The position numbers and the translations under genes are program-made. A DNA stretch of 64,000 nt from an uncultured Clostridia bacterium (lineage in GTDB: Bacteria; Bacillota; Clostridia; TANB77; CAG-465), in NCBI GenBank assembly GCA_934149365.1, contig CAKPEI010000004.1, positions 112,487 to 176,486 on the forward strand. The letters are read 5' to 3'. Position 1 is the stretch's first letter. Each line of letters begins with the position of its first letter. Below are positions 3 through 42,751 of this stretch, in pieces. Under the pieces are notes generated by a model that had not been told where the DNA came from, ran no database searches, and saw only the letters and a program-made list of their open reading frames with translations.

Positions 3-3000
3 GATTGGAATATATCTACAGGAAGAGTTGGAACAACTGAAAAAAATATACAACCTAATTTGTCAGGTTATATATATCAAGAAGTATATGAGAAAAAGTC
101 CGGAGCAGGAGCGCTAAGGATAGCAAATATAAAATATGACCATGAAACGGCAGGCTCATATTGGAATCTATTAAGTACATCTCAAAAGAGTACATATAAT
201 AATTATACTTGTATAGGTTCAGCGGTCGGTAAAGGCGACAGAGTAGATTTAGCAGAAGTGAAAAGAGATGAAGCTACCTTAAATGTAATTGGAAATAGTA
301 AAATCAATTTTGTAAATTATAGTCAAGGATCCGTTGCCCAATCGGCAGATAGTTATATAAATAAAAATGGTAATTATACTTCAGAAGTTATAGGAGATAA
401 TGATTATAGAACAGTAGTGGTCGATTTCTATTATGTGAAAGATGTATGTCAAGGTGATTCTTGTATCGATGTTGACCCTAGTTATAAGCGTGTTTACGTA
501 AGACATATTGATGTTACTGGTATTGATGATAAAATTAATGCTGCCAATATTGATACTGCAGTTAGAAATGGTAAGGTATTAAGTGGAAAAGGAAAGGCTA
601 AAAAGAATGATTGGAGTGAAATATCAAAGGATGGAGGAAATTATCCTGGATATCAAGAAAGATATACAATAAAATCTAATGAAAGCTTAGAAGTATTTAG
701 GGATCCAAATGATAATTATAATTGTATAGGATCAAACATGACTATGACTAATGATAGTAATATAAACACAGCCAAAAGTAGAATGAATACAAAATTAAAT
801 AGTTATGCTTCAAAATACGATAGCTGGCTTAAAGAATCTAGAAAAACTACAGCTAGTGATAACTCTGATGTTGTTATAATGGATTTCTATTATACAAGCA
901 AGCATTCAGGAACACCAATAGAAAGAAATAAAGTTGGAAGATTAGCATTTTATACAACAGGACAAAGTGATAAATTTTCATCTAAGGTAAATAACCATAC
1001 TAATAACGACTCAGGCACAGTATATGATGTTATACCTTCAAATGAAGTATTAAGAATGTCAGTAGATAACGCATATACATACATGCTAGGCGCAATAAAT
1101 ATAAAAGAACAAACAATACAAGACACATACACTTTTGATTATACGCTAAAGCAGCCATATAGTATTACATATAAAGATTGGTATTCTTGGTGTAATAAGT
1201 GTGGAAGAGGAGCTAGTGATAAAAAATCAGGTGCTTGTGGCAAGTTAATACCAAAAACGTGTCCAGATGGTAACGGAGGTACAACAGATTGTTCTTATAT
1301 ATGCCCAGGAAGCTGGAATTCAGACTATAATATAAAAACTTATTCGGGTGAAGTTACAAGAACATACAGATATCAAATACCATATAAATATACTTACTAT
1401 AAGGTAAAGAACTTAAGGTTATATAGTATTAGTAAAATAGAATTAAATGATGGATATAATAATAAAGGCCTTCCTTTATTTGACGGAAAAACCCATACTG
1501 TTCAAACAACAGATAAGTATAAATCAGGTTTCAATGATTCAACTTTTACAATATCTTCTAATAATCAAATAAATAACAGAGAAAGTAAAGAATTAAGCTA
1601 TAGGTTACCATACTCATATGATAATAATGATGGAGATGTTTCAACGTCGGAACTTATCAATTATGCTTCAGGACAAATAAATTCACTGTTTAATGGTATA
1701 AGTCATACAGATGCAGCTCAAATAGAAAAATTTAATGATATAAATTCATCAAGTTATACAAGTACATCAAACCATTTAACAGCAACATTATATGTAAAGA
1801 ATGATGAAATAAGTTTCATGGATAAAATAAAAAATTCAAGAATATATTTAATTGGTCAAAATGTAAGCAGTTTAAACACATTAAATGGTATGTATGTAAG
1901 ATCTGAAAAAGACGCAACAAGAAAAATAGATTTAGTATCATATACTGCTTCAAAAACTACAAATAATTCTAGAGGTACATATACGTATTCAGTTTCAGAG
2001 GCAGACAGAGTTAATGTAGAAACAGTATATCCAAAATCTACTAAAGATAAATATCTTCCATCAGATAGTAAAACTAATTCAGGAGGTTATGGTGGTAGAG
2101 ATTATTATAATTTAGAAAATCTAAACATACCAGAATCAAGATTAAATGGAAAGAGATATTCATATGGAAAGATATACTATACATTACTTTCAGGAAATAA
2201 TGTGCTAAACTTTGATGTCGATGATAATAAAGTGGTTAATGGAAATCATAATTGGAACAGTGACAACAGCAAAAATAGAAAAAGTGTAAGTGGAGCAACA
2301 GGAAATACATTTGTAGATACAGAAATGTACAATACAGATGGAACATCAAACCCATTAAAAACTACACTTATTTCCCCAGGAACATTAAGTGATGTTATAT
2401 GGGAATATGGAAAAAATAATGGAACAGATGCAGATATTGTAGATGTATTTACTCCAATATCATTTACTACAAAGATAGTAGGAAATTCTAATAGTGATAT
2501 AAGAGTTGATCACACGGTTGTAAATAAAAATAATAATAAGCAAAAACAAATACAAAAAAATTCGAGATTTACAATACAGATAGATGCAACAAATAATAAT
2601 AGTACTTATAGTGGAGTACAAACTTCCAAGTATCTTGGAAAGTATTATGTTAAATTCAATTTTGATGTTCAAGATATAAAAATTTCTGATGCAATGGGAA
2701 CAAATAGAACATATTCAAGTAATTCTGCAAGCAGTGAAACTTGGATAGGACCTATATATAACAGATATAATGGTAATTCGATAGGAACAGTTACAGTAAG
2801 TGCTTATGCATTAGCTGATCCAAATGAGGCAAGTGGCGTTGTAAATCAAGAGCAAAATGAATATGAAGTAAGAGCTGTAGCGATAAATTCTCCAAGTACA
2901 CTTGATTATGATGTACTAAGAGGAAGAATTTCTGAAACAACGAAATTTATAACCACAATTCAAAACACATTTTCAGGAACTGGAAGTAACAATCAATATC

Positions 3001-4082
3001 ATCAAAAATATTATGATCAAAAGAACATATATGGTCAAAGTAATTATGTGGCAAATGACGTTGTTGAAACTGAAAATATAAGTAGGGTATATGATTTTAA
3101 GGTTACTGATGTCAAAGATGTTGATTGGAAGAGCATATTTAGGACATCTACTTCTACTACAACTAACGTGCATTCAGGTAAAGCATATTATTCCGGAGTA
3201 AAAAAATGGAATATATATACTACAGCATACAATAATATGATAACAAGAGATGTTTCTGAAATAGGAGCTACAAAACAACAAATATTACCAGTAGGACCAT
3301 ATAAACATACTACTTCTGCATATACTAAAGCACCAAAACTTGGATATAAATTTAGCTTTGATTTAAAAACAACTGGTGCTAATGCAAACAAGAAAATTGT
3401 AATACAACCAAGTTTTTACTATATTAAAAAAGATGCTACTGGTTATACAGAGGATATAAAATTATATTATAAAAATAGCAGTAACAAATATGTAGACATA
3501 TCTAATTATAAATTGTACTTTGTACCAGATGATGGATATAGACTAACGTTTGAGGGAACAGACCAATCATATAGATTTTCGTCTTCCTCAATATCAAAAA
3601 CAACCAAGTTATTAGGTAGCACTAAAGAAATAACACTAACTCAGGAAATGATGGAACAGGCAGATAATAATTTCGTACAGATTTGGTATGGTGAGTACAA
3701 ATTACCAAATTCTACAATAGTAATAGGTAAGGGTACAGATGGTAAATACAATATAAATAGAGATAGATTGACAGGTGGTTATATAGGAATAAAATTTGAT
3801 ATTAAAGTTTATGAATATAAGTCATCAACAATGACAGAAACTAATATTAGTAAGGTATTAAGTTATTCTCAAAATGATAAAAATGCATCATCTAATACTA
3901 ATACTTCTCAATGGGATTATGAAGGGTTCTTAGGCTTTTCAAATCCTGGTAGTTCGGCAAATAATATTAAGGTATCCTTAGAAAAAGGAGTATGGACATT
4001 AAACGATACTATGTATAACAAAATAAAAGGAACCGTTCTATTATATGATACTGATGCTACAGCATCATCAGATTACGATTAA
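3..4082 (+). CDS. Very large Asn/Ser/Thr/Tyr-rich secreted or surface protein, 5' end cut by window edge
   Basis: Frame is open from nt 3 into the listed TTG at 60 with no stop, so the gene continues upstream. More than 1340 aa, low-complexity N/S/T/Y-rich. Internal duplicated module (NY[TN]CIGS then VV[VI].DFYY at about aa 119-125 and 271-278 of the listed ORF). Single Cys cluster at nt 1191-1304. No LPXTG or SLH at the C-terminus. A hairpin terminator follows. Confidence 0.7.
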   Translation, partial: DWNISTGRVGTTEKNIQPNLSGYIYQEVYEKKSGAGALRIANIKYDHETAGSYWNLLSTSQKSTYNNYTCIGSAVGKGDRVDLAEVKRDEATLNVIGNSKINFVNYSQGSVAQSADSYINKNGNYTSEVIGDNDYRTVVVDFYYVKDVCQGDSCIDVDPSYKRVYVRHIDVTGIDDKINAANIDTAVRNGKVLSGKGKAKKNDWSEISKDGGNYPGYQERYTIKSNESLEVFRDPNDNYNCIGSNMTMTNDSNINTAKSRMNTKLNSYASKYDSWLKESRKTTASDNSDVVIMDFYYTSKHSGTPIERNKVGRLAFYTTGQSDKFSSKVNNHTNNDSGTVYDVIPSNEVLRMSVDNAYTYMLGAINIKEQTIQDTYTFDYTLKQPYSITYKDWYSWCNKCGRGASDKKSGACGKLIPKTCPDGNGGTTDCSYICPGSWNSDYNIKTYSGEVTRTYRYQIPYKYTYYKVKNLRLYSISKIELNDGYNNKGLPLFDGKTHTVQTTDKYKSGFNDSTFTISSNNQINNRESKELSYRLPYSYDNNDGDVSTSELINYASGQINSLFNGISHTDAAQIEKFNDINSSSYTSTSNHLTATLYVKNDEISFMDKIKNSRIYLIGQNVSSLNTLNGMYVRSEKDATRKIDLVSYTASKTTNNSRGTYTYSVSEADRVNVETVYPKSTKDKYLPSDSKTNSGGYGGRDYYNLENLNIPESRLNGKRYSYGKIYYTLLSGNNVLNFDVDDNKVVNGNHNWNSDNSKNRKSVSGATGNTFVDTEMYNTDGTSNPLKTTLISPGTLSDVIWEYGKNNGTDADIVDVFTPISFTTKIVGNSNSDIRVDHTVVNKNNNKQKQIQKNSRFTIQIDATNNNSTYSGVQTSKYLGKYYVKFNFDVQDIKISDAMGTNRTYSSNSASSETWIGPIYNRYNGNSIGTVTVSAYALADPNEASGVVNQEQNEYEVRAVAINSPSTLDYDVLRGRISETTKFITTIQNTFSGTGSNNQYHQKYYDQKNIYGQSNYVANDVVETENISRVYDFKVTDVKDVDWKSIFRTSTSTTTNVHSGKAYYSGVKKWNIYTTAYNNMITRDVSEIGATKQQILPVGPYKHTTSAYTKAPKLGYKFSFDLKTTGANANKKIVIQPSFYYIKKDATGYTEDIKLYYKNSSNKYVDISNYKLYFVPDDGYRLTFEGTDQSYRFSSSSISKTTKLLGSTKEITLTQEMMEQADNNFVQIWYGEYKLPNSTIVIGKGTDGKYNINRDRLTGGYIGIKFDIKVYEYKSSTMTETNISKVLSYSQNDKNASSNTNTSQWDYEGFLGFSNPGSSANNIKVSLEKGVWTLNDTMYNKIKGTVLLYDTDATASSDYD

Positions 4083-36878: not shown

Positions 36879-38246
36879 ATGAACAAAAAGACTTATGTGC
36901 TGAACAAACCTGCCTTATTAACGTCGGAGGAGTCGCTTTTAAGATTTGACGGTGGAGATATTGTTATCCCCATGGCGGTTCTTGAGGATTTACAGTCTTC
37001 AATTTCCAAACTCAAATCTGCGCGGCAAGCCATAGCAAGAAAGGTACTTGATAAGTTAGATAAATTCAACTTTAAAGATTTAAGCACAAAGGGAATTAAA
37101 CTTGAAAACGGAACACTGCTTAAAGTGAGTATAAACTATACGGAAATAGAAGTCGATATAGAAGGCGTGTCACAAAAAGATAAGAGGATACTTCAAACTT
37201 GTCTTGGTCTTAAAAATGAAGGGAAAAATGTTATCCTTATATCAAACAACCCGGTAATGAGAATGAAAGCTAGACAGCTTGGAATTGTATCAGAGGAACT
37301 TAAGGACAGAGTTTTCCCGTCAATTAATGACCAGTATAAAGGTTATGAGGAAGTTTATGCATTATCTTCTGACATTGATGAGCTGTTTAAGAATGGAAGT
37401 CTGGAAAAAGAAAGAATCTATGAGTACGAAAAAGTTGACTGGCAGACAAATTTGTATTTGAGTATAAGGTCGGAGACGAATACTGCGGCGCTTGCATATT
37501 ATGACGGCGATGTTATTGTTCCTATAAAGAACATACCAAAGCCTTATGGTATAACGGCAAAGAATATACGTCAAAAATTCCTTATACATGCGTTAATGGA
37601 TCAGGATACACCTCTGGTTATAATAAAAGGGGTTGCAGGAACCGGTAAGACATTTTGTTCTCTCGGAGCAGCGCTTGAGCAAACCGTAAAGAAAGATATA
37701 TATGATCAGATTTTGATTACAAAATCTACTAAAAAAGTGGATCAAGAAGAACTTGGATATCTTCCGGGTGATTTGAGTGAGAAGTTTGATCCGTATATAT
37801 CGAGTATATACGATAACCTTGAAGTCTTGTACAGAGCGCAGAATGGAAGAGGTTCTGAGAGTTACAAAGAAAGCACAAAGTTTAAGTCGTTAAGAGAAGA
37901 AATAAATGGTTGCTTGTTTGATACTGAAATAATTAAGATTCAGACAGTTGGCCATATAAGAGGTCGTTCTCTTATAAACAAGATATTCATTATCGATGAA
38001 ACTCAGAACATTGCGCCGGAATCAATAAAACAGATTGTAACAAGAGCTGGCGAAGGTTCCAAGTTCATATTCTTAGGAGACCCTACACAGGTAGATTCAC
38101 CTGAACTTACTGAGAAATACAATGGACTTGTATATCTCTCGGAGATGATGAAAGGTAAGCCACTTTGCAGGCAGATAACATTGGAAACTGCAGGAGATGC
38201 AGTAAGATCTCCTCTTGCACAGCTTGCAGTTGATGCACTTATTTAA
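36879..38246 (+). CDS. PIN-domain plus PhoH-like ATPase (YlaK-type)
   Basis: Walker A GVAGTGKTF and Walker B IIDETQN. N-terminal PIN-like domain. 455 aa. Visibly higher G+C than most of the window. Confidence 0.88.
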   Translation: MNKKTYVLNKPALLTSEESLLRFDGGDIVIPMAVLEDLQSSISKLKSARQAIARKVLDKLDKFNFKDLSTKGIKLENGTLLKVSINYTEIEVDIEGVSQKDKRILQTCLGLKNEGKNVILISNNPVMRMKARQLGIVSEELKDRVFPSINDQYKGYEEVYALSSDIDELFKNGSLEKERIYEYEKVDWQTNLYLSIRSETNTAALAYYDGDVIVPIKNIPKPYGITAKNIRQKFLIHALMDQDTPLVIIKGVAGTGKTFCSLGAALEQTVKKDIYDQILITKSTKKVDQEELGYLPGDLSEKFDPYISSIYDNLEVLYRAQNGRGSESYKESTKFKSLREEINGCLFDTEIIKIQTVGHIRGRSLINKIFIIDETQNIAPESIKQIVTRAGEGSKFIFLGDPTQVDSPELTEKYNGLVYLSEMMKGKPLCRQITLETAGDAVRSPLAQLAVDALI

Positions 38247-38400: not shown

Positions 38401-40110
38401 ATGAGTAAAAAAGTCACGAGTATTTTTATGGCTGTTTTGATGGTCCTGACGTGTGTTTTTACACAGATACCTGCAGTAACAGTCCATGCATTTTCAAGTT
38501 ATCAGGTTGAGGTTACTAAAGATAACGCGCCTATTAGAAATGGATATTATCAATCCAAGAAAATAGTGCGGAGAGTAAGTAAAGGAACAATACTCACAGT
38601 AATTGATGAAAAAACCAACTTGAAATTTAACAAGTGGTACAAGGTAGGCAAGGATGAGTATATATTTAGCGGTAACGTAAAAAAGGTACAGAAGCCTCAC
38701 ACACATAGTTATAAAAGGACGGGTTACGAAAAAGCGCATCCACATTATGCAATTTATGACTGTTCATGTGGTCAAGGAGGATATTGCTCTAATACGGAAA
38801 CTAAGAAACAGGCAGGATGTAATAAATGCTATCCACCTGAGGAGGCAAAGCTTAAACCATATGCTCCAGATATTCCAGTAATAAATCCTGAACAAACGGT
38901 CAAGGAATATCAGAGAGTACATGAGCACAAGTACAACATTACAGGGTATGCAAATGAACATCCGCATTATGCTCAAAAAGAATGTTCTTGTGGTAGCAAG
39001 ATAAAAGGAAACGAAACTACAAGAAAAGATGGTTGTGAAACATGTTACCCACCAATAGCTAAAGTGATAGAGTCCATGCCAGATAGATTTTCGCATGAAT
39101 GTAAATATGTAGCTATAGGTAGTTTTGCAGAACATCCCCATTATACTAAAGAAAAATGTGAAGAATGTGGAAACATAAGAACTAACACTTATGTTACTAA
39201 ATTCGATCCTAACTGTAGCATTTGTACATCTCCTTTTAAAACGGGAATAGATTATACTGATTTAACAGGAAGACTGTATGATTTGTCTAATGGTTATACG
39301 TGGGACTTTACAAACGGTCAAAAGAAAGAGTTATATGATTTTGCATCCGATTTACATGCATCTTTGGATATATGTGGTTTGGTGTTTGATGGCTGTGATT
39401 TGTTAAATGTTGCATTTTACATTGTAGAAGGAAAATGGGCAGATGCGGCTTTGTCTGGAGTAGCTGTAATACCATATATAGGCATTGTTACACCATCTGG
39501 TAAGGCAATAGCAAAATCTGGGAAGATAACCGTGGATGCAGCTCAAGGGACAGGAGCCAAAATTGTTAGAGAAACTACTGAAGATGTAGGTGAAAAAGTT
39601 GCTACAAAAATAACAAAAGATGTGGTAACTAAGAATTTGGGAAATTTATCCGACACTGCAAAAGCAATAGTAAAGAACTCTGACGATTACTCTGAAGGCT
39701 TACTTAGAACAATAAAGAAAATCTCTGAAAATCAAAAGGTGGATCTCTCTGATGCGTTTTATAAAAAACAGTTACTTTTAGGAAAGGATTATTCAGCAGA
39801 GATAGTTACAAAAAGTGGTCTTAGATATGCGAATGTGAGAGGTGAAAACCGGATAATGCATATTGTAGAAAGACACGGACTTTATTCTTCTGATGCAACT
39901 AGAAATCATTTTAAAGTGGCCGGGAAACAAATTTTCGACATTATAGATGATGTGGTGTTAGATGGTAATATCATAGCGAAGTCTCAAAGTAAAAATGGTA
40001 ATATGGTAATAGACTATATAGCACCTTATGTTATAGGAAGTAATGGTGAAATGAAATTACGTCTAATAACTTATGAAGGAAAAGTTGTAACGGCATTTCC
40101 AATGAACTAG
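38401..40110 (+). CDS. Secreted multidomain polymorphic-toxin-like protein: signal peptide, SH3b-like segment, 3 His/Cys repeats, PT-TG-like module, unassigned C-terminal domain
   Basis: Signal peptide ending ..AVTVHA/FS. SH3b-like aa 35-95. Repeats with HPHY..CxCG..CxxC at aa 99-146, 174-217 and 231-278. aa 320-375 (DICGLVFDGCDLLNVAFYIVEGKWADAALSGVAVIPYIG) resembles the pre-toxin TG module. The C-terminal ~100 aa carry IMHIVERHG. Confidence 0.6.
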   Translation: MSKKVTSIFMAVLMVLTCVFTQIPAVTVHAFSSYQVEVTKDNAPIRNGYYQSKKIVRRVSKGTILTVIDEKTNLKFNKWYKVGKDEYIFSGNVKKVQKPHTHSYKRTGYEKAHPHYAIYDCSCGQGGYCSNTETKKQAGCNKCYPPEEAKLKPYAPDIPVINPEQTVKEYQRVHEHKYNITGYANEHPHYAQKECSCGSKIKGNETTRKDGCETCYPPIAKVIESMPDRFSHECKYVAIGSFAEHPHYTKEKCEECGNIRTNTYVTKFDPNCSICTSPFKTGIDYTDLTGRLYDLSNGYTWDFTNGQKKELYDFASDLHASLDICGLVFDGCDLLNVAFYIVEGKWADAALSGVAVIPYIGIVTPSGKAIAKSGKITVDAAQGTGAKIVRETTEDVGEKVATKITKDVVTKNLGNLSDTAKAIVKNSDDYSEGLLRTIKKISENQKVDLSDAFYKKQLLLGKDYSAEIVTKSGLRYANVRGENRIMHIVERHGLYSSDATRNHFKVAGKQIFDIIDDVVLDGNIIAKSQSKNGNMVIDYIAPYVIGSNGEMKLRLITYEGKVVTAFPMN

Positions 40111-40121
40111 GAGGTAAAAAC

Positions 40122-40346
40122 ATGAAGTGTAATTTTTGTGGTCAAGGAGACATTGTCGTAGCTACAATGAAAGATGGCAAAACTAAACTTGCAATTTGTG
40201 ATGAATGCGACGAGGTCTACGAAATTGATAAAAATGGCAAAGTTGTAATGGATCATGATCCAAACGACGTCGAGTATAATGAAAGACTAAATGCTTTATT
40301 TAAGTCTTGGGATGACGTTTTGTCTTACGTAAAGTATGATGAGTAA
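40122..40346 (+). CDS. Candidate immunity protein (74 aa, zinc-ribbon-like CxxC..CxxC)
   Basis: Starts 12 nt after the toxin stop, behind its own GGAGG. CNFCGQGD .. CDECDE. Acidic. The role is inferred from position only. Confidence 0.45.
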   Translation: MKCNFCGQGDIVVATMKDGKTKLAICDECDEVYEIDKNGKVVMDHDPNDVEYNERLNALFKSWDDVLSYVKYDE

Positions 40347-40393: not shown

Positions 40394-41116
40394 GTGAATA
40401 AAATTCTGAGAGTACTTGTTACTATTATTTTGTTTACTACCTTAATTGGAACAGCTGTCATGGCTTCAAGTGACTTCTGTAAAGAATCTGAAGATGGTGA
40501 ACACTTATTTGAAAGTATGGATGTAGAAAATAAACATCCACATGCAGGAGAATATACATGTTATTGTGGTGAGAAGATTTATTTTTCAAAGTCGTACTTG
40601 CCAGAGGAGTGTAAAAAATGCAGAGAAGAATTGTGCAAAGTTGGTATACACAATTACTCTTTTGATAGCTATGAAGAAGATGGAATTATACTATGTGAAT
40701 GCTATTGCGGAGATACAGAGTATCTATCTAAAAAAGAGTCTGATGAATTTTTAAATAAAGTAGGAAAAGAGGAAGTTATACACTTTCCTAATTGTGAACT
40801 TACTTATGAAAAAATTCATCCACATGCAGGCTATACTGAATATTCTGATGGTTATGTAGAGTATTTTGATGATTTTCATGCAGGTGACTGTATAATATGT
40901 CAGTTTAATGATGACTATATTATAGAAGTTGATAATTACCAAAGAGACCTTATAATATACGGTGAAGGAATCAGAGAAGAGTATGATTCTTCAGAAGATG
41001 ATTCGTATAATTCTAAAGCCACCAACTATTATGAAGGAAACTATGGAAACACTTCAAGTGTTCAGGAATATGATGACTTTTATGAGTGGCTTGAAATTAT
41101 GAAAGAATTATTGTAA
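40394..41116 (+). CDS. Secreted His/Cys-repeat protein related to the toxin's N-terminal module, with no toxin domain
   Basis: GTG start 7 nt after AGGAGG. Signal peptide ..GTAVMA/SS. KHPHAGEYTCYCGEK..CKKC and KIHPHAGY..CIICQ motifs. Acidic Tyr-rich C-terminal tail. Confidence 0.6.
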   Translation: MNKILRVLVTIILFTTLIGTAVMASSDFCKESEDGEHLFESMDVENKHPHAGEYTCYCGEKIYFSKSYLPEECKKCREELCKVGIHNYSFDSYEEDGIILCECYCGDTEYLSKKESDEFLNKVGKEEVIHFPNCELTYEKIHPHAGYTEYSDGYVEYFDDFHAGDCIICQFNDDYIIEVDNYQRDLIIYGEGIREEYDSSEDDSYNSKATNYYEGNYGNTSSVQEYDDFYEWLEIMKELL

Positions 41117-41616: not shown

Positions 41617-42751
41617 ATGGGAACAAAAGTAAAATCGAGAAAGCGGAATATCATTAATAGTATTAGTAATAACAATAATAGTAATGATAATATTAGCAGC
41701 CGCAATAATACTATCACTATCAAATAGTGGAATAATAGGGAAGGCAAATAAAGCCAAAACAGATAGTGATACAGCAAATTTAAAAGAGTATGTAAATACA
41801 CTAAGAGCAGAATGGGAGTTAATGACAGCAGAAGAACAAACAGCAGCAGGGTCATTTGTAGATTATGCAAATTCTAAGTTAGCTGAGAAAGGTTACAAAA
41901 GAGAGCTAGCAGCAGATGGAGAGACAGTAATGAATGAAAATGCGACAGCAGCAGTAAAAGCAGGAATAAAGGTAGGATGTGAGGTAGAAGGTTATAATGA
42001 TTTGCTTGATGAAAAGGAGTATCCAATAAAGGCAGGAGTGATAGATGCTACAGATGAACAAACATTAAAAACAAATTCGAAATATAAGTGGTATTATATT
42101 GGAATAGGAGAAGATGGAAATTTATTAATAGCGCCTAAAATATCAGGAACATTAGCAGCAGAAGATAAGATGACGTTAAAAGGGGTAAAAGGATATTTAA
42201 ATGGAGAAGAAGAGTTAAATAATGCGTGTAGGGTACTATATTCGGTAGAAGGAAAAGGAACGGCAAGAAGTATGAATATAGATGATGTGAATAGTATATT
42301 GGGATATACTGGTGAAAAAGGCCAATATTACGATGAAACTGATAATTTGCTTACAATAGGTCAAACTGGTCAAGTTAAAGAATTGGGCACAAATACAAGA
42401 ACTCCAGAGAAACCAACAAATGGAACAGTAGAAGATATAAGTAAATATAAATTAGATTTTTATAGTGTAAGTAAATCAAGAACTGATATTATAAACAAAG
42501 AACTTGTATTCGCATCTAGTGACACTTGTGCGTATTGGCTTTCATCTACGTGTGTTGGTGCGTATTTTAACCTTGGTTATGCCTTTTTTAGTATGCGAGG
42601 AGTGAATTCTATAAGTGTAAACTCATATAGCTTGTTTTATTCACAAAACAGTTCAAGAACAATGTCCTGTGCAGTTCGTCCTGTAGTAGCATTAAATTCT
42701 AATATGAAATTAACACCAAATGCAGATAAAACAGTGTGGGCAATAAACTAG
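41617..42751 (+). pseudogene. Pilin-like protein with DUF1566-like C-terminus, paralogue of 59181-60356, N-terminus disrupted by a 1-nt insertion
   Basis: GGAGG (41604-41608) then ATG at 41617 gives MGTKVKSRK. After an extra C at 41644 the +1 frame reads GISLIVLVITIIVMIILAAAIILSLSNSGIIGKANKAK, near-identical to the 59181 protein. The original frame stops after 36 codons. Confidence 0.6.

Follow-up and report, generated by a model that had tools for sequence, protein, structure and literature searches.

The three His/Cys-rich repeats encoded at positions 38695-39234 of a 64,000-nucleotide stretch of uncultured Clostridia DNA (contig CAKPEI010000004.1; the window, meaning the whole of this stretch) are true copies of an unnamed mini-domain family of ~45-46 residues. 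The repeat lies within a secreted toxin-like protein, and the family as a whole is a general extracytoplasmic module, not a toxin-specific device. The balance of the evidence leans, modestly, toward an extracellular mini-domain that is built as a three-stranded antiparallel sheet, holds two metal ions, likely zinc, and serves as a tandem spacer.

The repeats and their conservation

Translation of positions 38695-39234 in the frame of the open reading frame (ORF) 38401-40110(+) gave exactly the three repeat segments quoted in an earlier reading made by a model from the letters alone (the sequence-only reading). The copies are encoded on the plus strand at 38695-38838 (R1, residues 99-146), 38917-39054 (R2, residues 173-218), and 39091-39234 (R3, residues 231-278), with linkers of 26 residues between R1 and R2 and 12 residues between R2 and R3. 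Each begins with an N-terminal H-x-H pair (H-x-C in R3) and an aromatic residue two positions on, followed by H-P-H, then five residues later by C-x-C-G (C-x2-C-G in R3), and ~16 residues further by C-x2-C. The candidate ligands are His-100, His-102, His-113-Pro-His-115, Cys-121-x-Cys-123, and Cys-140-x2-Cys-143 in R1; His-174, His-176, His-187-Pro-His-189, Cys-195-x-Cys-197, and Cys-212-x2-Cys-215 in R2; and His-232, Cys-234, His-245-Pro-His-247, Cys-253-x2-Cys-256, and Cys-272-x2-Cys-275 in R3. The C-x-C...C-x2-C arrangement that the sequence-only reading gave to every copy therefore holds for R1 and R2, whereas the first Cys pair of R3 is C-x2-C. A hidden Markov model (HMM) built from 241 repeats of non-window proteins scored R1, R2, and R3 at 60.7, 54.0, and 37.3 bits, with match spans of residues 99-145, 174-217, and 231-276 of the 569-residue protein, so that the three tandem copies first seen by eye are real. 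Relative to R1, identity is 48% for R2, 33% for R3, and 30% for the full copy in a neighboring gene, and a six-frame regular-expression search of the window found the motif only in the toxin gene and in that gene, two ORFs downstream. Likeness among the copies at the DNA level is confined to ~30 nucleotides around H-P-H, indicating that the copies are old and ruling out a recent duplication. Two minus-strand ORFs that overlap the repeats (38494-38745 and 38764-39141) are reverse-frame artifacts of an AT-rich gene.

To follow the repeat beyond the window, as the sequence-only reading had suggested, a profile of the four window repeats was scanned exhaustively against all 1.84 billion cluster representatives (clusters at 50% identity). 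This matched 168 proteins at E ≤ 1e-3, 41 at E ≤ 1e-10, and 11 at E ≤ 1e-30, and gave the spread and domain partners of the family. Carriers contain 1-10 copies, mostly head to tail with a period of ~45 residues. Conservation was assessed over 241 near-full-length repeats from 148 non-window proteins with a mean identity of ~38%. In the numbering of the repeat, His-16-Pro-17-His-18, Cys-24, Cys-26, and Cys-46 are present in 100% of the repeats, Cys-43 in 99%, Gly-27 in 93%, an aromatic residue at position 7 in 96%, and His-3 in 86%. At position 5, 214 repeats have His and the other 27 have Cys, with no other residue seen; as an exchange between these two is the usual mark of a metal ligand, this position looks like one. 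C-x-C forms the first Cys pair in 180 repeats, and 56 repeats have C-x2-C there. Cysteine makes up 9.3% of residues within repeats compared with 1.8% outside them, and single extra cysteines are tolerated. The His and Cys positions on which the sequence-only reading had built its proposal are thus retained in the 241 repeats of other proteins, and its estimate of one or two metal sites per repeat fits the eight conserved ligand positions.

The absence of the repeat from named domain families, also anticipated from the letters, was borne out, with no family in Pfam-A 2025, NCBIfam 20.0, or PADLOC 2.0 covering residues 99-278 of the window protein. A Pfam scan of 62 carriers gave no family common to most of them, and 83 single repeats drew only scattered Pfam matches (E ≥ 4e-4, each in at most 8 members), among them assorted weak matches to zinc ribbons such as DUF1922 (8 of 83) and Ribosomal_L31 (2 of 83). 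The precomputed annotation of the toxin relatives from a newer Pfam release lists SH3 only, the PADLOC scan gave nothing relevant, and no description of the repeat was found in the literature searched. A word-indexed homologue search with the 185-residue repeat region or the 83-repeat alignment, a method insensitive to short Cys-rich queries, returned no match. The family is fairly rare (168 clusters) and unannotated, and the tools used found no relative of it in the PDB, either by sequence or by fold.

Carrier proteins and taxonomic range

The carriers are nearly all secreted or surface proteins, comprising peptidoglycan hydrolases, BspA-type leucine-rich repeat (LRR), dockerin, SLH, and Cu_amine_oxidN1 proteins, along with the ectodomains of Ser/Thr kinases and two families of toxins. 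A signal-peptide-like hydrophobic N-terminus is present in 134 of 150 carriers by a crude hydropathy test, and those without it are mostly truncated or are Ser/Thr kinases with a transmembrane segment ahead of the repeats. The partner domains counted in the Pfam scan of 62 carriers were LRR_5 of the BspA type (12 carriers), Cu_amine_oxidN1 and Flg_new (11 each), PG_binding_1 (10), Peptidase_M23 and SH3_3 (8 each), Dockerin_1 (7), and Pkinase (4), with Big_2/Big_3, fn3, M15, NlpC/P60, CHAP, SLH, C-type lectin, and RNAse_A_bac as further partners. The repeats are placed between catalytic or binding domains and anchors, as in the orders NlpC/P60, PG_binding_1, four repeats, Cu_amine_oxidN1; CHAP, PG_binding_1, repeats, SLH; DUF6273, 10 repeats, Big_3, C-terminal hydrophobic tail; repeats, M23; and Pkinase, transmembrane segment, Big_2, repeats. 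Since most carriers are hydrolases, LRR, dockerin, or SLH surface proteins, or kinase ectodomains, the repeat is not toxin-specific, and the receptor-binding or toxin-delivery role that the sequence-only reading had read from its position in the toxin is not upheld as its specific function.

GTDB species genomes were scanned with a degenerate DNA pattern, which yielded at least 118 loci; of these, at least 95 carry true repeats by HMM; 23 of the 118 listed are chance matches in other phyla with no repeat. Among the matches listed, the true-repeat loci come, with one exception, from metagenome-assembled genomes (MAGs) of uncultured gut Clostridia (Oscillospiraceae, Acutalibacteraceae, Ruminococcus, Lachnospiraceae, and Eubacteriales) from human (Hadza and others), goat, sheep, yak, deer, horse, rabbit, and chicken. 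There is no cultured isolate among the true matches listed, which is probably why the domain is still unnamed. The exception is a MAG labeled Bacteroides sp. (JAMPEQ010000002.1; locus L040, 633-3902 on the minus strand in reverse-complement coordinates), in which an ORF of 1090 residues has a single repeat copy (E = 1e-12). The DNA of the window is chromosomal, has ~30% G+C, and belongs to a spore-forming member of the Clostridia; it encodes SpoIIR, SpoIIE, and a class A penicillin-binding protein; its ORF at 60-4082(+), of 1340 residues, has no Pfam match at E ≤ 1e-5.

Predicted fold and candidate metal sites

The structure of R1 was predicted by AlphaFold2 (AF2) with the 83-repeat alignment, giving a mean predicted local distance difference test score (pLDDT) of 88.7 and three strands at positions 7-12, 19-24, and 30-37. 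The model and the alignment together place the ligand pairs relative to these strands, as strand order and not as coordinates. His-3 and His-5 lie just before strand 1, and Cys-24 and Cys-26 end strand 2, its antiparallel partner. The H-P-H knuckle occupies the turn that joins strand 1 to strand 2, on the far side of the sheet from His-3 and His-5, and Cys-43 and Cys-46 follow five residues past the long strand 3, which ends at the H-P-H side. Strand pairing is also backed by covariation at 13-21, 9-22, 10-22, 20-37, 21-30, and 23-29, obtained by mean-field direct-coupling analysis of 410 unique repeats (effective number 360) on variable columns only; the analysis over all columns was dominated by artifacts of the invariant ones. 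Weaker signals (z about 2) link 3/4/7 to 25, that is, the H-x-H segment to residue 25, and 15 to 40. A Foldseek search of the PDB with the repeat model gave no match (best E 3.8, template modeling (TM) score on the query, TMq, ≤0.44), and no structural similarity to solved zinc ribbons was found in that search.

The assignment favored from the predicted topology is of two His2Cys2 sites per repeat, one formed by His-3, His-5, Cys-24, and Cys-26 and the other by His-16, His-18, Cys-43, and Cys-46. Site 1, at one end of the sheet, would combine the N-terminal H-x-[H/C] pair with the C-x(1-2)-C knuckle where strand 2 turns into strand 3. Site 2, at the other end, would combine the H-P-H knuckle of the preceding turn (strands 1 to 2) with the C-terminal C-x2-C. 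By analogy, the metal is most likely zinc, with iron, nickel, and cobalt also possible.

Degenerate copies bear on this assignment. In the B-like proteins encoded downstream of the toxin gene (described below), the second unit keeps only a C..H pair and C-x-C and the third only H-P-H and C-x2-C. As each half repeat retains one four-ligand set, each candidate site appears to be kept or lost whole. Together with the strand topology, these copies favor two His2Cys2 sites, so that the single Cys4 zinc ribbon suggested by the four cysteines in the sequence-only reading is probably not formed. Variant arrays of mini-units (HPH-x5-C-x(1-4)-C or HPH with two single cysteines) occur in P0079, P0073, P0082, P0066, P0023, and P0141. 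Arrays of the P0079 kind consist of one H-x-H, then five HPH-x5-C-x(1-4)-C units, then one C-x2-C, and in P0141 some units have HPH and two single cysteines within an array that starts with H-x-H and ends with a Cys pair. The ligands of both sum to complete four-ligand sites if HPH pairs with the cysteines that follow it, whether of its own tail or of the next unit, and their counts suggest metal sites shared by neighboring units.

A shorter motif, [CK]-x-H-x-Y-x2-G-(G)-[YI]-C-x2-C-x-[YF]-x-[WY]-P, was observed four times in P0156 (939 residues), for example at residues ~100-125, 268-290, and 438-460. Each copy is flanked by SH3-like units, with a Flg_new repeat after the second SH3-like unit. 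The motif starts like the repeat (H-x-H-x-Y straight after GNVKK) and extends over only ~25 residues, and it may be a related one-site knuckle.

Evaluation of the spacer interpretation and its alternatives

The interpretation of the repeat as a metal-cross-linked spacer bead is based on its small size, which leaves hardly any hydrophobic core, its eight ligand-type positions, its variable copy number, and its placement between heads and anchors. Strictly anaerobic gut Clostridia would string 1-10 such beads as a stiff spacer between functional domains and wall anchors, and metal cross-links would do in anaerobes what disulfides do in aerobes; the restriction of the repeat to strict anaerobes fits metal sites taking the place of extracellular disulfides. 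In the window protein, the three copies would set the SH3b-like wall-binding head apart from the pre-toxin-like segment and the nuclease-like toxin, keeping the toxin part distant from the SH3b-anchored N-terminus.

Several points weigh against this interpretation. Covariation linking the ligand segments is weak (z about 2), the site geometry is drawn from strand order and not from distances in the model, and the C-terminal half resembles one-zinc Cys4 ribbons (bL31 and DUF1922), which would favor pairing of C-x-C with C-x2-C. The proposed spacer role is an argument from domain architectures, and the linkers of 11-26 residues in the window protein preclude a contiguous rod there. The many conserved tyrosines (positions 7, 12, 19-22, and 31) would suit a glycan- or wall-binding surface equally well. 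The conservation figures are also somewhat circular in that the repeats were picked by a profile that rewards these residues, although invariance at so low a mean identity far exceeds what such selection would produce.

The conserved aromatic positions are one reason to consider that the repeat is instead a binding module that recognizes peptidoglycan, a wall glycopolymer, or a target-cell receptor, and that acts in attachment or delivery in the toxin. Consistent with such a role are the frequent wall-directed company (PG_binding_1, SH3_3, SLH, M23, M15, NlpC/P60, and CHAP), the special subtype next to the pre-toxin-like segment in five of six aligned toxin relatives, and the position of the repeat at the distal end of kinase ectodomains, a place held in other kinases by PASTA-type sensor repeats. 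However, the carriers usually already have dedicated binding domains, their partners (dockerin, C-type lectin, LRR, fn3, and Big_2) are too varied for a single ligand, copy number is free to vary from 1 to 10, and there is little conserved surface beyond the ligand positions and core aromatics. We regard a binding role as the strongest of the alternatives, but as a rather unlikely one.

A somewhat smaller chance is given to a bL31-like arrangement, in which the C-terminal half forms a one-zinc Cys4 ribbon (Cys-24, Cys-26, Cys-43, and Cys-46), perhaps by descent from a bL31-like ribbon, with the four histidines in a separate second site or serving another role. bL31 holds one zinc ion by its C-x-C and C-x2-C motifs. 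It gave the best PDB sequence matches of the 83-repeat profile (E 0.08-0.1), followed by eL43 and MTH1184, and hhalign against Escherichia coli RpmE (P 1.3e-4, probability 54%) aligned HP-x-Y...CSCG...C-x2-C-[H/Y]-P; the scattered DUF1922 and Ribosomal_L31 matches of single repeats point the same way. None of these matches is significant, including those to bL31 itself (PF01197; PDB profile E 0.08, Pfam matches of 2 of 83 repeats at E ≥ 0.1), and any two Cys pairs ~17 residues apart draw zinc-ribbon profiles. The AF2 model places one long strand (positions 30-37), not a hairpin, between the Cys pairs, and bL31 is absent from the Foldseek matches of the repeat model. A His4 site is impossible in that model, as His-3/His-5 and His-16/His-18 are at opposite ends of strand 1, and half repeat 2 of the B-like proteins, with the N-terminal pair and C-x-C and without HPH and C-x2-C, would mean two half-sites. 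The likeness of the C-terminal half to one-zinc ribbons is suggestive, short of a demonstrated relationship, and the module may have originated by exaptation of a bL31-type ribosomal zinc ribbon.

It is also conceivable, although doubtful, that the repeat represents a new class of extracellular module in which, in directly tandem arrays, the zinc ions staple the junctions between beads, with HPH completed by the cysteines of the next unit, as in the variant arrays. If so, zinc supply and a reducing environment would determine how long and stiff the surface stalks are and whether secreted toxins stay intact, and strict anaerobes would gain a metal- and oxygen-sensitive switch on their surface proteins.

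That the four cysteines form two disulfides steadying a small secreted domain, with another role for the histidines, is very improbable. Four invariant cysteines in a secreted ~45-residue domain are the classic pattern for this, but the hosts are strictly anaerobic gut Clostridia, Cys at position 5 gives an odd fifth cysteine in 27 of 241 repeats and other single extras are tolerated, the combination of C-x-C and C-x2-C knuckles and an unvarying H-P-H is one that metal sites typically show, and variant units with two cysteines only still keep HPH. Attachment of a c-type heme (C-x2-C-H) was rejected, as only a small minority of repeats have His after the last Cys.

The toxin-like host protein

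The secreted polymorphic-toxin-like protein that contains R1-R3 is 569 residues long (38401-40110, +). It consists of a signal-peptide-like N-terminus read from the sequence (residues 1-30, MSKKVTSIFMAVLMVLTCVFTQIPAVTVHA; 38401-38490, +), an SH3b-like domain (Pfam SH3_3, PF08239; residues 51-94; 38551-38682, +; E = 6.4e-5), the three repeats, a conserved pre-toxin-like segment (residues ~316-362; 39346-39486, +), a variable linker, and a putative C-terminal toxin domain of ~140 residues (residues 430-569; 39688-40107, +). Exactly this protein is encoded by 21 contigs from metagenomes of the human gut (Hadza and other). Six full-length aligned relatives (35-42% identity) have the same architecture with 3-7 repeats, and eleven relatives with 31-42% identity in the C-terminal domain share the layout. 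The SH3b segment named in the sequence-only reading scores 23.5 bits in the window protein, under the 27-bit Pfam gathering score, although relatives pass it. At E ≤ 0.1, SH3_3 matches 9 of 14 family members, the best of them with E = 3e-12, and P0001 reaches 27.2 bits.

The pre-toxin-like segment follows the pattern H..LD.CGL...D..N..Y..EG...A.LSG.A..P..G, with invariant columns at His-319, Leu-322, Asp-323, Gly-326, Asp-333, Asn-336, Tyr-340, Glu-343, Ser-352, Pro-358, and Gly-361. By eye, it looks like a pre-toxin module of the PT-TG kind. Pfam PT-TG (PF14449) matched none of the 14 family members (the window protein and 13 relatives) at E ≤ 0.1 and none of four isolated fragments at E ≤ 10, and Pfam lends no support to the pre-toxin module proposed in the sequence-only reading. 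As in R3, the last repeat ahead of this segment belongs to the H-x-C subtype in all but one of the six toxin relatives that were aligned; at this position, P0001 has a lone His and P0026 is without the first His (QVSC). The conserved last copy may functionally belong to the pre-toxin-like segment.

The AF2 model of the C-terminal domain, made with a 12-sequence alignment, has a pLDDT of 92.8 and a predicted TM score of 0.87. The top Foldseek match in the PDB is 7m5f_C, a chain of a Serratia marcescens contact-dependent inhibition (CDI) complex (E = 0.023, probability 0.95, TM score only 0.38-0.44), and the domain has no sequence match in Pfam or the PDB. His-487 and His-492 are invariant (IMHIVERHG), and there is a C-terminal ...TAFP motif. 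The likeliest reading of the domain is a toxin of the metal-independent RNase type. Two further carriers of the repeat, P0005 and P0037, have a bona fide RNAse_A_bac domain at the C-terminus, so that a secretion part carrying the repeats is joined to toxin domains that are swapped between relatives (the unnamed type or RNAse_A_bac), as in polymorphic toxins. The shared architecture, the modeled C-terminal domain, and the CDI structural match support the initial impression of a secreted polymorphic toxin. The window toxin was rejected as an RNAse_A_bac member, as hhalign against the C-termini of P0005 and P0037 aligned the last hairpin only (probability 8.6%). Matches of the full protein to designed Pizza propellers in a phmmer search of the PDB were treated as spurious, since they fall on the Gly/Val-rich linker at residues 354-379 with no significant stretch. 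A tblastn search of plasmids with the toxin gave no match.

The downstream genes

An ORF at 40122-40346(+), starting 12 nucleotides past the toxin stop codon, encodes a candidate immunity protein, a 74-residue cytoplasmic protein in which an N-terminal ribbon (C-x2-C...C-x2-C) is accompanied by a conserved F.(S/T)WD(D/E) motif. It gave only weak zinc-ribbon matches in the domain libraries. Homologues with 36-41% identity are found in the same place after the toxin gene in loci L125 and L129, so that the gene is present in three of five loci; it is missing in L128 and L056, where the gene for the B-like protein directly follows the toxin gene. The 74-residue protein is the obvious candidate for immunity.

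The secreted B-like protein of 240 residues (40394-41116, +) contains copies of the repeat beyond those first noted, namely one full and two half repeats. The full repeat (residues 29-77; 40478-40624, +; 36.8 bits) has Cys-29, His-37, His-48-Pro-His-50, Cys-56-x-Cys-58, and Cys-73-x2-Cys-76. The next unit (40634-40705, +) has Cys-81 and His-86 with Cys-101-x-Cys-103, without HPH and the C-terminal C-x2-C, and the last (40817-40900, +) has His-142-Pro-His-144 with (His-162) Cys-166-x2-Cys-169, without the N-terminal pair and C-x-C. These units are preceded by a signal peptide and followed by an acidic Tyr/Asp/Glu-rich tail and a C-terminal FYEWLE.(M/V)K(E/D)(L/I)L motif. Both half repeats are conserved in all four aligned B-like proteins, and the first, with its C-x4-H pair, is also present in L056. 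B-like homologues of ~240-267 residues are encoded after the toxin gene in every one of the five distinct loci examined, namely the window, L125 (6101-6850), L129 (6117-6863), L128 (5904-6707), and L056 (3-404, minus strand). The B-like protein could act as an accessory factor or as an inhibitor outside the cell, or it could be the remnant of a toxin. It was also observed to be 42% identical to residues 282-359 of P0037, the RNAse_A_bac toxin.

The flanking genes vary by locus, with PhoH/PIN in the window and aldolase/PfkB and RecD2 elsewhere, indicating that the cassette moves as a unit. The gene directly upstream of the toxin gene (36879-38246, +) encodes a PIN_4 and PhoH fusion of 455 residues and, given the variable flanks of related loci, is probably unrelated to the cassette. 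Straight after the cassette, a 355-residue ORF (41684-42751, +) has a hydrophobic pilin-like N-terminus (MIILAAAIILSLSNSGIIGK...); its sole Pfam match is a weak one to DUF6923 (E = 0.013), and its real start may be upstream.

Significance and comparison with known systems

In uncultured gut Clostridia of humans, ruminants, horse, rabbit, and chicken, the repeat forms a sizeable component of the surface and secreted proteome that has gone unannotated, and naming it would annotate stretches in hundreds of large hypothetical wall hydrolases, adhesin-like LRR proteins, cellulosome-type dockerin proteins, receptor kinases, and toxins. If the two-metal prediction is true, zinc would cross-link small extracellular domains in strict anaerobes where aerobes use disulfides, tying bacterial surface architecture to gut zinc availability and oxygen exposure. 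The conserved cassette, in which the toxin gene is followed by genes for the small zinc-ribbon protein and the secreted repeat protein, is a new and tractable system in which Sec-dependent interbacterial toxins of Gram-positive bacteria can be studied.

In Sec-exported Firmicutes toxins, SH3 domains are found at the N-termini, probably anchoring the protein to the wall of the producer (Zhang et al. 2012, PMC3482391). The host protein resembles these polymorphic toxins in its signal peptide and N-terminal SH3-like domain, its central repeats, a C-terminal toxin domain that varies between relatives, and a small gene immediately downstream. It differs in that its central repeat is outside those described and PT-TG is undetected by Pfam, and in that a second secreted repeat-bearing protein is encoded downstream in five of five loci, compared with three of five for the small candidate immunity gene. 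Like the spacers of Gram-positive surface proteins (Big_2/Big_3, Flg_new, fn3, and Rib-type stalks), with which it often shares proteins, the repeat is a tandem module of variable number between heads and wall anchors. In contrast to these Ig-like or beta-sandwich domains of 65-100 residues, which have a hydrophobic core and no metal ligands, it is half the size and built on His and Cys.

The zinc-binding (type A) form of bL31 shares with the repeat the local string HP-x-Y...C-S-C-G...C-x2-C-[H/Y]-P. It is a single-copy cytoplasmic ribosomal protein of ~65-80 residues, whereas the repeats are internal, tandem, and secreted; the C-terminal FxTG...RFxxR of E. coli RpmE is absent from the repeat, the spacings diverge by two residues, and bL31 has one His only. 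Zinc ribbons more broadly (TFIIS/Rpb9, eL43, and DUF1922/MTH1184, with two knuckles and three strands) are likewise small beta modules with ligand pairs in or beside hairpin turns, and the C-terminal half of the repeat, C-x-C-G...(~16)...C-x2-C, gives weak profile matches to several ribbon families. The repeat has eight conserved ligand positions where ribbons have four, adding the invariant H-P-H knuckle and the N-terminal H-x-[H/C] pair, and it is secreted, in tandem arrays of up to ten copies, with no significant sequence or fold match to a solved ribbon. In kind, the repeat is a variant of the small zinc-knuckle and zinc-ribbon modules, unusual in being secreted, tandem, and predicted to hold two metals by mixed His/Cys ligands.

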